Made by a program: the position numbers. DNA of 64,000 nt from Candidatus Omnitrophota bacterium (GTDB taxonomy: Bacteria > Omnitrophota > Gorgyraeia > JAFGHF01). Shown here piece by piece: positions 12,001 through 15,000 of the stretch (position 1 is its first letter; each line of letters opens with the position of its first letter). Where the stretch lies: the NCBI GenBank assembly GCA_043805735.1, contig JAZDHS010000020.1, forward strand, positions 9,750 through 73,749. The letters run 5' to 3'.

Positions 12001-15000
12001 GTTGGAAATTACCGATGTGAATAACGCCTATCTATCACGCGGGGAACTCTCTTTCGATATCCTCGACGGTTGGTGGACCGATGCCGGGACGTTTGAATCG
12101 CTCTTACGGGCCAATAACCTGGTGGCGGAGAAAATCGGCCGAGGCCGGAAATGAACCCCGCCCTTCCTAAACAAGCATTGCGTAACAAGCAAAAGTACAG
12201 CAGAAAGTTTTAGGCAATGCAGATAAAATTAAGCAAAAGCAATATTTATATTGGCAATGCCGGGAAAGGAAGGGCGGGGTGAAGAAAAGAATCCTGGTGA
12301 CCGGTGGAGCCGGATTTACCCCGCCCCTCCAAAAATGATGGCTCAGGGTGGTTAATTAAATATTTTGGTTTATATTAAAGCGATGGCGCAATGAAAAAGA
12401 AAATACTGGTTACAGGAGGGGCGGGGTTTATCGGCTCCAATTTTATTCGTTATCTCTTCAGCGCTTACCCTAAGCTTTCACTGGTTAACCTGGATAAGCT
12501 GACCTATGCCGGGCGGGGCGCTAACCTGGGCGATCTCGCCGCTTCGCCGCGTTACCGTTTTGTCAAAGGCGATATCTGCGATCAGCAGGCCGTTAGCCAG
12601 GCGATGCGCGGTTGCGAGATAGTGATTAATTTTGCCGCCGAAAGCCATGTTGACCGCTCGATAGTTGACCCGGCACAATTCGTGCGCACCAATGTCTTCG
12701 GCGCGCATGTCCTGTTAGAACAGGCCCGCAAAAACAAAATTTCCCTTTTCTGCCAGATTAGCACCGATGAGGTCTACGGAAGCCGCATGAGTGGCTCGTT
12801 TAAAGAGACGGACCGGCTTGAACCCTCCAGTCCCTATTCAGCGACAAAAGCCGCCGCCGATCACCTGGCGCTGTCCTATTTTATTACCTATAAGCTTCCG
12901 GTGGTCATTGTTCGCCCAACCAATAATTTTGGACCTTATCAGTTTCCCGAGAAAGTGATCCCGCTTTTTGTGACCAATATATTAAAGGATAAAAAGGTAC
13001 CCCTCTATGGCGATGGCCTCAATGTCCGCGACTGGCTCTACGTCCAGGACTGTTGTCGGGCAATCGACATCGTCATTAACCGCGGCCGGCCCGGAGAGAT
13101 CTATAACATCGCTGGAAAAAATGAAATTAAGAATATCGAGTTAACCCGGCTAATTCTCAAGATGATGGATAAGCCCAAAAACTACATTTCCTTTGTCGCG
13201 GACCGTCCGGGACATGACCGGCGCTATTCTTTAGATCCGGCAAAACTCGCCAGGCTCGGTTGGCGTAGCCGTGTTGCGTTTACCCGGGCGCTTGGTGAAA
13301 CTATTCAATGGTATGTAAACAATCAGAAATGGTGGAAAAGGTTAAAAGGTTAAAGGAGCAGGACCAATGAGCGTGCAGGAGTTGCTGGATAAAATTAAAC
13401 AGAAGAAAGCGAAAGTGGGGATTATCGGCTTAGGCTATGTGGGTTTACCTTTAGCGGTTACCTTTGCCAAGGGTGGTTTTGACACCTACGGCTTTGATAT
13501 TAATCAATCAAGAGTCAACCGGGTGAAAAAAGGGGAATCGTATATTTTGGATGTGCCGCAGGCGCAGTTACGCCAAGTCTTGGCTAAAAAGAAACTCACC
13601 GTAAGCGCTGATTTCGCGGCGATAAAAAAGGTGGATGCGGTGATTATTTGCGTGCCTACGCCTTTAAAAGAGCGCAAAGAACCCGATGTTTCCTATATAG
13701 TTTCCGCCGTAGATAACATTAAAAAATACATGAAGAAAGGCCAATTGGTAGTGCTGGAAAGCACCACCTACCCTGGCACTACTGAGGAAATTATTTTACC
13801 GGCGCTGGAATCGCGCGGATTTAAAGAAGGCAAAGATTTTTATCTGGCCTTTTCTCCGGAGCGGGTTGACCCTTCCAATGCCAAATATAAAACGGAGAAT
13901 ACGCCCAAGGTTATCGGCGGAGTTTCCGCGCAGTCCGGAGCCGTAGCCCGCGCGCTCTACGCCGGCGTGATTCAAAAAGTAGTCGTGGCTTCCTCGGCCA
14001 AAGTTGCGGAGATGTCTAAGCTTCTGGAAAATACCTTCCGGATCGTCAATATCGCGCTGGTCAATGAGCTTTTACTGATGTGCGAGAAACTTGGTGTTGA
14101 TGTCTGGGAAGTGATCGATGTGGCCAAGACCAAGCCCTACGGCTTTATGCCTTTTTATCCCGGGCCCGGCGTCGGCGGGCACTGCATCCCAGTGGATCCG
14201 ATTTATCTTTCCTGGAAGGCCCGCCACTACGGCTTTGTAGCCCGTTTTATTGAATTAGCTTCGGCGGTAAACTCGCAAATGCCGCACTATGTCGTGGAGC
14301 GGATAACCAAGGCCCTCAACGTCCAGAAGAAACCGCTAAAGGGGAGTAAAATTCTCATTGTCGGCGTGGCCTATAAAAAGGATGTCAAGGATTTACGCGA
14401 ATCGCCGGCTTTGGATATTATCACCATCCTGCAGAATGCCGGGGCCTGCGTTTCTTATTACGACCCGCTGCTGCCTTATTTAAAGATTGACCACATTGAT
14501 TTAAAAAGCGTGCCCTTTAGTGCGAAAAGCTTTAGTGATAAGGATTGCGTGGTGATCGTCACTGACCACAGCGTTGTCGACTATGAGTTTATTCTTACTC
14601 ATGCGTCTTTAATCCTGGATACGCGCAATGTGATGAAAGATTTAAAAGGCAGAAAAGAAAAGGTAGTCCGGCTATGAGCCCCGCCCTTCCTAACAGCCGC
14701 ATTGCAAAGGGCAAAGAAGTATGGATACAAAAAAATATGCTAGAGATAAAAGCAAAAGTTGAAATTATTGTTGGCAACGCCAGGAAAGGAAGGGCGGGGT
14801 GAGCGTATATTTAGTTACCGGAGGAGCCGGTTTTATCGGCTCCAATATCGTCGAGGCCCTGGTCAAACGCGGCGAGCAGGTCAGGGTTTTGGACAATTTT
14901 GTCTCTGGGAAAAGAGAAAACCTCACCGCGCACCTTAAACAAATCGAGCTGACTGAAGGAGATATTAGAGACGTCGCCCTTTTGCGTAAGGTGGCAAAAG

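Follow-up and report, generated by a model that had tools for sequence, protein, structure and literature searches.

Mycobacterial interspersed repetitive units (MIRUs), reportedly described by Supply et al. in 1997, are, judged by description, the closest known system to the element that is our subject here, a short GC-rich inverted repeat located at gene starts in a 64,000-nucleotide stretch of DNA (the window) from a Candidatus Omnitrophota bacterium (GenBank assembly GCA_043805735.1, contig JAZDHS010000020.1, positions 9,750 to 73,749, forward strand). According to the sections on MIRUs in two sources (PMC12548453, PMC3184786), these are repeats of 40 to 100 bp or more, with tetranucleotide direct repeats and with empty and filled sites; they insert at start codons, contain an internal open reading frame (ORF) coupled to the gene by a -4 nt overlap, and are co-transcribed within operons. 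The REP2 repeats of Neisseria, and similar upstream repeats of Borrelia, lie directly 5′ of genes and bring with them a promoter, a ribosome-binding site and a start codon that is continuous with the host ORF (PMC3184786). Searches of the literature consulted for Omnitrophota equivalents, or for MITEs (miniature inverted-repeat transposable elements) with start-codon coupling, returned only the MIRU and REP2 concepts and no description of the present element.

Two copies had been picked out in an initial annotation of the window, which took them for a structured leader specific to the short-chain dehydrogenase/reductase (SDR) genes of nucleotide-sugar metabolism. Both inverted repeats are present where it placed them, with a like architecture and outer arms CCCCGCCCTTCC / GGAAGGGCGGGG, but our analysis leads to another reading. 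With a probability of roughly 0.8, these hairpins are a non-autonomous, MITE-like element that sits on start codons and serves as a portable Shine-Dalgarno (SD) sequence and GTG codon, with translation probably coupled across it, and that has given rise to derivatives here called type B. Insertion duplicates a target of 3-4 bp, usually the TGAA or TGAG of an ATGAA or ATGAG start; the native start codon is then stranded on the left of the element, and on the right the element's last G and the duplicated TG form a new GTG.

The two copies in question, of type A, and the features that adjoin them are as follows. Numbers beginning with L denote loci from other genomes.

12151-12155, + strand: orphaned original ATG of rmlB (12151-12153), overlapping the rmlA stop TGA (12152-12154); left target duplicate TGAA (12152-12155)
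12156-12279, + strand: type A copy A1, 124 bp, with terminal inverted repeats at 12156-12167 and 12268-12279
12280-12283, + strand: right target-site duplicate TGAA of A1; the last G of A1 (12279) and its TG make GTG
12279-12317, + strand: fossil N-terminus of the original rmlB, 13 codons, cut off by insertion of type B copy B1; it aligns with the intact N-termini in L095 and L094
14674-14678, + strand: stranded ATG at which the epimerase gene originally began (14674-14676) and which the dehydrogenase stop TGA (14675-14677) overlaps; left target duplicate TGAG (14675-14678)
14679-14799, + strand: type A copy A2, 121 bp, with terminal inverted repeats at 14679-14690 and 14788-14799
14800-14803, + strand: right target-site duplicate TGAG of A2
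14674-14802, + strand: complete A2 leader ORF, 42 codons, MSPALPNSRIAKGKEVWIQKNMLEIKAKVEIIVGNARKGRAG and stop; its TGA (14800-14802) overlaps the new GTG at 14799 (GTGA)
14799-15746, + strand: WbpP/TviC-like SDR epimerase, 315 aa, whose present start is the insertion-made GTG

The 3′ repeat of A2, GGAAAGGAAGGGCGGGG, provides the SD, the spacer and the first base of the GTG, in agreement with the earlier statement that a purine-rich 3′ arm runs into the GTG start of the WbpP-like gene; this GTG (14799) opens the 315-aa epimerase-family ORF. The fossil GTG start that had been suspected next to A1 is likewise there, in the form of the 13-codon SDR N-terminus listed above, and its ORF continues to a TGA at 12336-12338. 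The leader ORF of A2 spans the whole element from an orphaned ATG that itself overlaps the dehydrogenase stop; that of A1, from the ATG at 12151, is interrupted by a stop at 12211. The inner arms were also described correctly (GCATTGC / GCAATGC in A1, with GCAACGC in their place in A2), and the 27-nt arms are 81% complementary. A conserved loop block does exist, in the shorter form AAGCAAAAG; the full AAAAGCAAAAG is exact in A2 only. The block AGCAAAAG is a subfamily signature that is also present in bin103.

Allowing one mismatch, the 12-mer arm matches eight times in the window, compared with 0.55 expected, a number that none of 100 shuffles reached. The four matches outside A1 and A2 belong to two further elements, B1 and B2 of type B, with arms CCCCGCCCCTCC / GGAGGGGCGGGG; these, and the 4-bp flanking duplications, had been overlooked in the initial annotation. 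All four window elements have perfect terminal repeats of 12-13 bp, and all four are flanked by 4-bp direct duplications: TGAA (A1), TGAG (A2), TTTA (B1) and TTTA (B2). When the window was scanned for any 9-bp inverted repeat with a flanking duplication of 3-5 bp, only the four elements and chance-level 3-bp cases appeared, and the 64 kb held no further inverted repeat with a 4-bp duplication.

Orthologous loci show the same sites both with and without the element. The window dehydrogenase (13367-14677) has Omnitrophota orthologues of up to 79% identity, and four syntenic loci, among them L094, L095 and L096 (bin103), were compared with the window:

Dehydrogenase/epimerase junction, empty in L095: GTTATGAGTACTTAT, an ATGA overlap
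Dehydrogenase/epimerase junction, filled in L094 by another subfamily (CCCCGTTAGAACC...GGTCTAACGGGG), with a TGAG duplication as in the window
Dehydrogenase/epimerase junction, filled in the window (A2) and in L096
rmlA/rmlB junction, empty in L095 (CTATGAAAAAGAAG) and in L094 (GGATGAAAAATAAG), both plain ATGA overlaps
rmlA/rmlB junction, occupied in the window by an A element, a fossil N-terminus and a B element, with L096 arranged alike
UXS-like gene, empty in L095 and in L096, with B2 in the window
UXS-like gene, whose ATGAG start carries an element of the CCCCGTTAGAGCC type in L094

At every compared site, taking out the element together with one of its duplicates gives back the orthologous sequence without a break, and the ATGA overlaps are recovered exactly. 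The initial annotation had named absence from orthologous loci as the observation that would refute a leader, and absence is what is seen at both junctions in L095 and at rmlA/rmlB in L094.

As a separate observation, the sister subfamily in L094 (6313-6388 and 7333-7425) has very dissimilar arms, CCCCGTTAGARCC ... GGYTCTAACGGGG, with the CCCCG/CGGGG tips and the TGAG duplication unchanged; one of its copies lies at the dehydrogenase/epimerase start codon that in the window and bin103 is filled by the CCCCGCCCTTCC-type.

The element is widely dispersed. A search of one genome per species for CCCCGCCCYTCC-N75-105-GGARGGGCGGGG, with perfect arms required, returned 93 genome stretches, dominated by metagenome-assembled genomes (MAGs) of Omnitrophota with many copies each (CSMAG_1317 has 24 or more, and the closed bin103 chromosome of 1.55 Mb has 18 or more); GC-rich variants occur in MAGs titled Planctomycetia. 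The copies measure about 100-125 bp, with ends CCCCGCCCYTCC...GGARGGGCGGGG, and are flanked by a direct repeat of 4 bp in 56 cases and of 3 bp in 10. These duplications are mostly TGAA or TGA, with TGAG, TTGA, CTGA, TCCA, TTTA and TTCA also found, and are identical within every copy. Some copies are recent, those at 4391-4499 and 6059-6167 of L044 differing at 1 of 109 positions although located at different genes. Between subfamilies the two arms change together (CCCCGCTCTTCC/GGAAGAGCGGGG, CCCCGCCCTTCT/AGAAGGGCGGGG, CCCCGTTAGA/TCTAACGGGG). Duplications, empty and filled sites, near-identical copies and co-varying arms are together the hallmarks of a MITE. There are also tandem or nested copies (L055:5331-5547, L026:2743-2955, L061:3101-3218, L077:476-593), in which the GTGAA start made by one element has been hit by a second, an arrangement that recalls the tandem arrays of MIRUs.

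About one third of the genome matches (33 copies without a duplication) were set aside as longer palindromes that merely contain the 12-mer, from GC-rich genomes of Saprospiraceae, Lewinellaceae, Armatimonadota, Thermomicrobiales and actinomycetes. Longer palindrome families with a CCCCGCCCCTCC core (for example CCCCAC followed by CCCCGCCCCTCCCCAAGGGGGAGGGG...) and no TGA duplication are seen in L003, L013, L042, L043, L081 and L084 (Saprospiraceae/Lewinellaceae/Brevifollis), in L010, L046 and L065 (Thermomicrobiales) and in L047, L056 and L071 (Armatimonadota).

The position of the element relative to genes was analysed for the 61 copies that could be oriented by their TGA duplication. Of the bases directly 5′ of the left TGA, 53 are A, 7 are G and one is C, and the left flank thus completes a stranded ATG or GTG in 60/61 copies. 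On the other side, an ORF with GTG as its start codon, either 60 or more codons long or continuing past the edge of the locus, begins with the element's last G and the duplicated TG in 57 of the 61, compared with 7/122 for the control frames, and the 3′ repeat (GGAAAGGAAGGG / GGAGG) lies 5-6 nt 5′ of the new GTG, at SD distance. A long upstream ORF ending at the left TGA is found in 23/61 copies only. Since so many more copies precede a long ORF than follow one, the element is tied to starts and not to stops, and targeting of stop codons was rejected on these counts. In essentially all copies the interior, as judged from sequence logos, has a single orientation relative to the gene. Comparison of N-termini showed the downstream genes to be unrelated to each other, with no evident common function. 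The proposed specificity for nucleotide-sugar SDR genes is therefore lost, since many genomes have the element at the start codons of unrelated genes, which number in the dozens. That SDR genes seemed to be linked to it has two sources: type A was sampled locally, and type B follows an insertion logic of its own, which is SDR-specific.

The type B features of the window illustrate this second logic:

12315-12318, + strand: left target-site duplicate TTTA of B1
12319-12426, + strand: type B copy B1, 108 bp long, with arms CCCCGCCCCTCC and GGAGGGGCGGGG; the 12 residues at the present rmlB N-terminus are encoded in its 3′ part
12427-12430, + strand: right target-site duplicate TTTA of B1, which forms rmlB codons F, I
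12391-13353, + strand: rmlB, dTDP-glucose 4,6-dehydratase (TIGR01181, 449 bits against a cut-off of 365), with its first 12 codons inside B1
15733-15783, + strand: N-terminal fossil left from the UXS-like SDR gene (MSTPKKRRVLITGGAGF); its SD, AAGGAG, is at 15720-15725
15781-15784, + strand: left target-site duplicate TTTA of B2
15785-15890, + strand: type B copy B2, 106 bp, encoding 12 residues that are rmlB-like rather than UXS-like
15891-15894, + strand: right target-site duplicate TTTA of B2
15855-16790, + strand: UXS-like SDR gene, with its first 12 codons inside B2

Type B elements are derivatives whose right repeat, GGAGGGGCGGGG, doubles as Gly-Gly-Ala-Gly codons: in rmlB and the UXS-like gene the 3′ arm is read as GGA GGG GCG GGG, the Gly-Gly-Ala-Gly of the TGGAGFIG motif, and the 5′ arm lies directly 3′ of a fossil SDR N-terminus. 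They also bring upstream DNA rich in AT, together with a start codon and some eight N-terminal SDR codons, and they insert after the GGAGF codons of SDR genes, at TTCA or TTTA targets, such that the 5′ end and N-terminus of the gene are replaced. Thus B1 and B2 encode MKK(K/R)ILVTGGAG, after which the duplicated TTTA continues with F-I-G-S. The rmlB and UXS-like proteins are only 29% identical overall, yet 15 of their first 16 residues are the same; the shared residues are those encoded in or just after the element, and the element DNA aligns closely. The fossil N-terminus of the UXS-like gene, MSTPKKRRVLITGGAGF, is unlike the present one, implying that B2 carried in an rmlB-like 5′ end. The fossil ORF crosses B2 to a TAA at 15853-15855, overlapping the new ATG at 15855 (TAATG). 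The best sigma-70-like match of the 5.4-kb region, TTTATA-17-TATAAT (10/12), is at 15817-15845 inside B2, some 10 nt 5′ of the new UXS-like ATG, and type B may, on this prediction, also deliver a promoter.

A metagenome scan with a pattern of the left arm and then the right arm fused to F-I-G codons found nine contigs. In every one of them a TTCA...TTCA duplication is present along with an SDR N-terminus in fossil form, two features that were no part of the pattern. Why should SDR genes be hit repeatedly? Read antisense, the SDR codons TTC-ATC give GATGAA, the usual target of the family, followed by CCCCGC, which resembles a left junction, and this mimicry may explain the recurrent insertion. 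One family, ending in ...ATGAAAATTCTAATCACAGGAGGGGCGGGG, is found both in L072, where the gene is an unrelated one and the element occupies its canonical ATGAA start (TGAA duplication), and in L039, inside an RmlB-like gene with a fossil upstream (TTCA duplication), and from its presence in these two contexts it follows that type B-like elements are mobile units. Both copies are co-oriented with their gene, for which reason the orientation rule seems to stem from selection and not from the chemistry of insertion.

A peculiarity of the type B sites deserves separate mention. Outside the lineage of the window, 7 of 10 have a fossil N-terminus with a 1-nt insertion in the G-run beside the element (GCGG[A/T]GGTTCA), upstream of the left arm (L039:7761-7801, L098, L099, L100, L102, L105 and L106). 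It disrupts a would-be tight hairpin, GCGGGG-TTCA-CCCCGC, and in L039 it also changes the phase of the fossil ORF, whose end then falls on the new start (ATGA at 7868).

How can insertion on a start codon be tolerated? The stranded ATG retains its own purine-rich upstream region, and the first six codons from it (M-N/S/T-P-A/P-L-P/L) always traverse the 5′ arm. The leader ORF then stays open across the entire element, to a TGA overlapping the new GTG (GTGA, -4 overlap), in 33/61 copies, and is frameshifted or stopped in the rest. The ATG frame is free of stops in 33/59 copies, compared with 8/59 for the other unconstrained sense frame, and the length phase is correct in 38/59 copies and in 20/32 sequence clusters (p = 7e-4). 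In A1, which precedes a dead start, the leader ORF is broken in the window and in L096 alike. As the anatomy is laid out, the terminal stem would mask the new SD; ribosomes would either initiate on the orphaned native ATG or come through the ATGA overlap from an upstream gene, and by translating MNPALP... would cover the 5′ arm and open the stem. In about half of the copies they would cross the whole element to the TGA that overlaps the new GTG, and the downstream gene would then be translated by termination-reinitiation under its native initiation signals, making the insertion nearly neutral. We infer from these reading frames that the leader ORF may preserve expression by translational coupling.

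Several observations weigh against a mobile element with a coupling leader. About 0.8 Mb of retrieved loci yielded neither an autonomous partner nor a transposase, and the viral contigs of IMG/VR gave no match to the element. Arms placed 140-4000 bp apart (at most 2 mismatches, with a matching 4-bp duplication) enclose only pairs of separate small copies, and the solo arms are all accounted for by mismatched partners or by short or tandem copies. The leader ORF is complete in only about 54% of copies, and two antisense frames are also often open (21/59 and 31/59); these are open because the sense strand is purine-rich, which leaves the argument from the leader ORF a moderate one. With the stem beginning 5 nt 3′ of the orphaned ATG, de novo initiation there should be impeded by the stem itself, and the arms, taken family-wide, have no excess of G-U over A-C that would indicate selection at the RNA level. 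Since the collection search demanded perfect arms, arm conservation in that collection is ascertained and not independent evidence. Finally, one orthologous start codon is filled in the window, L096 and L094 by different subfamilies, which could reflect an old insertion kept for host function rather than repeated insertion.

This triple filling also favours an alternative in which the element is mobile by origin but has been domesticated by its hosts, the SD-masking hairpin imposing a common translational control through, for instance, a response to temperature, processing by RNase III or stabilisation of the mRNA. Effects on mRNA processing are known for MITEs of the kind of Correia and ERIC, the arms here stay perfect in copies whose interiors have completely diverged, and co-orientation with the gene is universal even though the comparison of L072 with L039 shows either orientation relative to the TGAA target to be possible. 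The copy-bearing genes, however, have no evident function in common, and related genomes differ in their copies. Moreover, A1 keeps perfect arms in front of a dead start, implying that such arms need no selection at the level of the gene. We regard domestication as unlikely, although it deserves real weight.

If the element is mobile, what kind of enzyme moves it? It might be REPIN-like or of the IS200/IS605 type, moved as single-stranded DNA by an HUH enzyme (RAYT/TnpA-Y1), in which case the flanking TGAA would represent a target tetranucleotide and an element-internal cleavage site, with no true duplication. Hairpin-forming ends, an orientation that is fixed relative to the gene, the dominance of TGAA on both sides and the lack of a DDE partner in the fetched loci would all fit such a mechanism. 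The flanking repeats nevertheless vary and still match (TGAG, TTGA, TCCA, TTTA, TTCA), as duplication by a staggered cut would give, and the ends are inverted copies of each other, not two different subterminal hairpins. One family is found, moreover, at both TGAA and TTCA, co-oriented with the gene, which argues against insertion that is specific for strand or orientation. Both the HUH enzyme and its account of the flanking TGAA seem to us improbable; as far as sequence can indicate, the variable duplications would instead suggest a DDE-type transposase with a staggered cut.

The view from which the study of this locus began, that of a dedicated cis-regulatory RNA leader (a riboswitch, thermosensor or attenuator) that sequesters the SD of nucleotide-sugar SDR genes, draws on the fold and on the fact that all four window copies touch SDR genes. 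The regions of A1 and A2 do form a stable terminal stem of 13-14 bp (z = -6.9 and -4.2), and this predicted stem includes the SD and would sequester it, as the initial annotation proposed; the opposite strand folds equally well. Across the family, arm positions 1-12 are paired in 64-68 of 68 copies, a count partly ascertained through the outer bases that were fixed in the search pattern. Pairing is confined to the terminal 12-13 bp, with positions 14-26 at chance level. The inner stem belongs to the window lineage only, with no cross-genome support, and the covariation expected of it did not materialise, 71% pairing among seven related copies being not above shuffled controls. Because the interior is not conserved between subfamilies, there is no candidate for a ligand-binding core. 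No Rfam match was obtained for the whole window at gathering thresholds or for 12100-15950 at E<=1, which agrees with the earlier remark that no named riboswitch or RNA motif was recognised and offers a riboswitch no help. Add to this the copies at starts of unrelated genes in many genomes, the empty orthologous junctions, and the target duplications, which a leader cannot explain, and a dedicated regulatory leader becomes very improbable.

Invertible promoters (invertons), or site-specific recombination sites that shuffle polysaccharide cassettes, are suggested by the AT-rich stretch of some 100 bp that inverted repeats enclose within a polysaccharide locus and by the promoter-like match inside B2, but we give them virtually no credence, since in every genome the copies are co-oriented with their gene, copies also occur outside polysaccharide loci, the direct target duplications together with the empty sites are signs of insertion and not of inversion, and an inverted B element would bring a stop codon into frame.

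The reading as a MITE-like element on start codons can be extended to an undescribed, cross-phylum family that homes to translation starts, with a hairpin-silenced portable ribosome-binding site and start codon, and with one lineage that has become an SDR N-terminus module. We put this broader proposal forward tentatively and with some doubt. If the placement reflects targeting and not survivorship, the mobilising enzyme would recognise translation-initiation regions, and this would also open a route to the unsolved problem of how MIRUs move.

Other features of the window and its relatives may be noted. A carbamoyltransferase (605 aa) and then an SxtJ-like small protein lie directly 3′ of the sugar-nucleotide genes (16795-19028), a pairing that is kept in L095, and L095 also has a zeta-toxin-domain gene and a 76-aa ORF (L095:3322-4129) between rmlB and the next SDR gene, with no counterpart in the window. 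The adjacent ORFs at 27664-28410 and 28432-29148 (248 and 238 aa) are tandem paralogues, 69-74% identical in DNA with a 735-bp period. Segments 21635-21925 and 37666-37956, separated by 16 kb, are 71-72% identical in DNA across some 290 bp and are presumably from paralogous genes.

For annotation, the consequence is that a plausible call of a new riboswitch is replaced by a documented mobile element. It also provides a clean case, at the level of sequence, of a transposable element that is located on the most sensitive triplet of a gene and yet tolerated, apparently through supplying its own SD and start codon and relaying ribosomes from the native start. Gene callers will misplace starts (GTG versus the orphaned ATG) and call spurious ORFs of 35-42 aa at every copy. 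One public gene call (L097:3831-3944) does list the 38-aa leader ORF of an element as a gene. Type B implies further that a MITE can give members of a conserved enzyme family another N-terminus and another promoter-proximal region, an unusual form of 5′-end turnover in polysaccharide loci.

How, then, does the element compare with known systems? Like REPINs it consists of inverted doublets of about 100 nt that form hairpins and occur in many copies. REPINs lack target duplications, are extragenic and have no start-codon placement; the present element has target duplications, and its arms are not themselves palindromic. With the classical MITEs (Correia/NEMIS, ERIC, RUP, Nezha) it shares terminal inverted repeats, short duplications, small size and dispersal, as well as long RNA hairpins and the lack of a transposase gene. 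Classical bacterial MITEs are mostly intergenic, with no codon-level placement, and in this they contrast markedly with the element described here, 57/61 copies of which lie on a start codon in co-orientation, with an inverted repeat that doubles as a translation-initiation signal. The palindromic elements of Rickettsia (RPEs), which are said to have been reported by Ogata et al. in 2000, are a more distant parallel. As they are outlined in PMC3184786, these are mobile palindromic repeats tolerated inside coding genes, with the frame preserved. They add an in-frame peptide, whereas type B replaces the 5′ end and N-terminus and leaves a fossil.

The nearest analogue of type B is REP2, since type B likewise brings an upstream region and start codon fused to the ORF, in this case to SDR genes; REP2 is without terminal inverted repeats, and type B has these, together with target duplications and the fossil N-termini that result from insertion within an ORF. 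With MIRUs the present element shares the orphaned ATG, the internal ORF and the GTGA overlap, and the tandem copies in L055 and L026 are a further likeness. The differences are that the hosts are Omnitrophota and Planctomycetia-labelled MAGs instead of Actinobacteria, that perfect, GC-rich inverted repeats of 12-13 bp serve both as the SD and as the source of the first G in the new GTG, that the full internal ORF is found in only about half of the copies, and that the family has a derived form that rebuilds SDR N-termini. Its abundance, its recent copies and its sharp ends with their duplications make it a better system than the MIRUs in which to find the enzyme that moves start-codon repeats.

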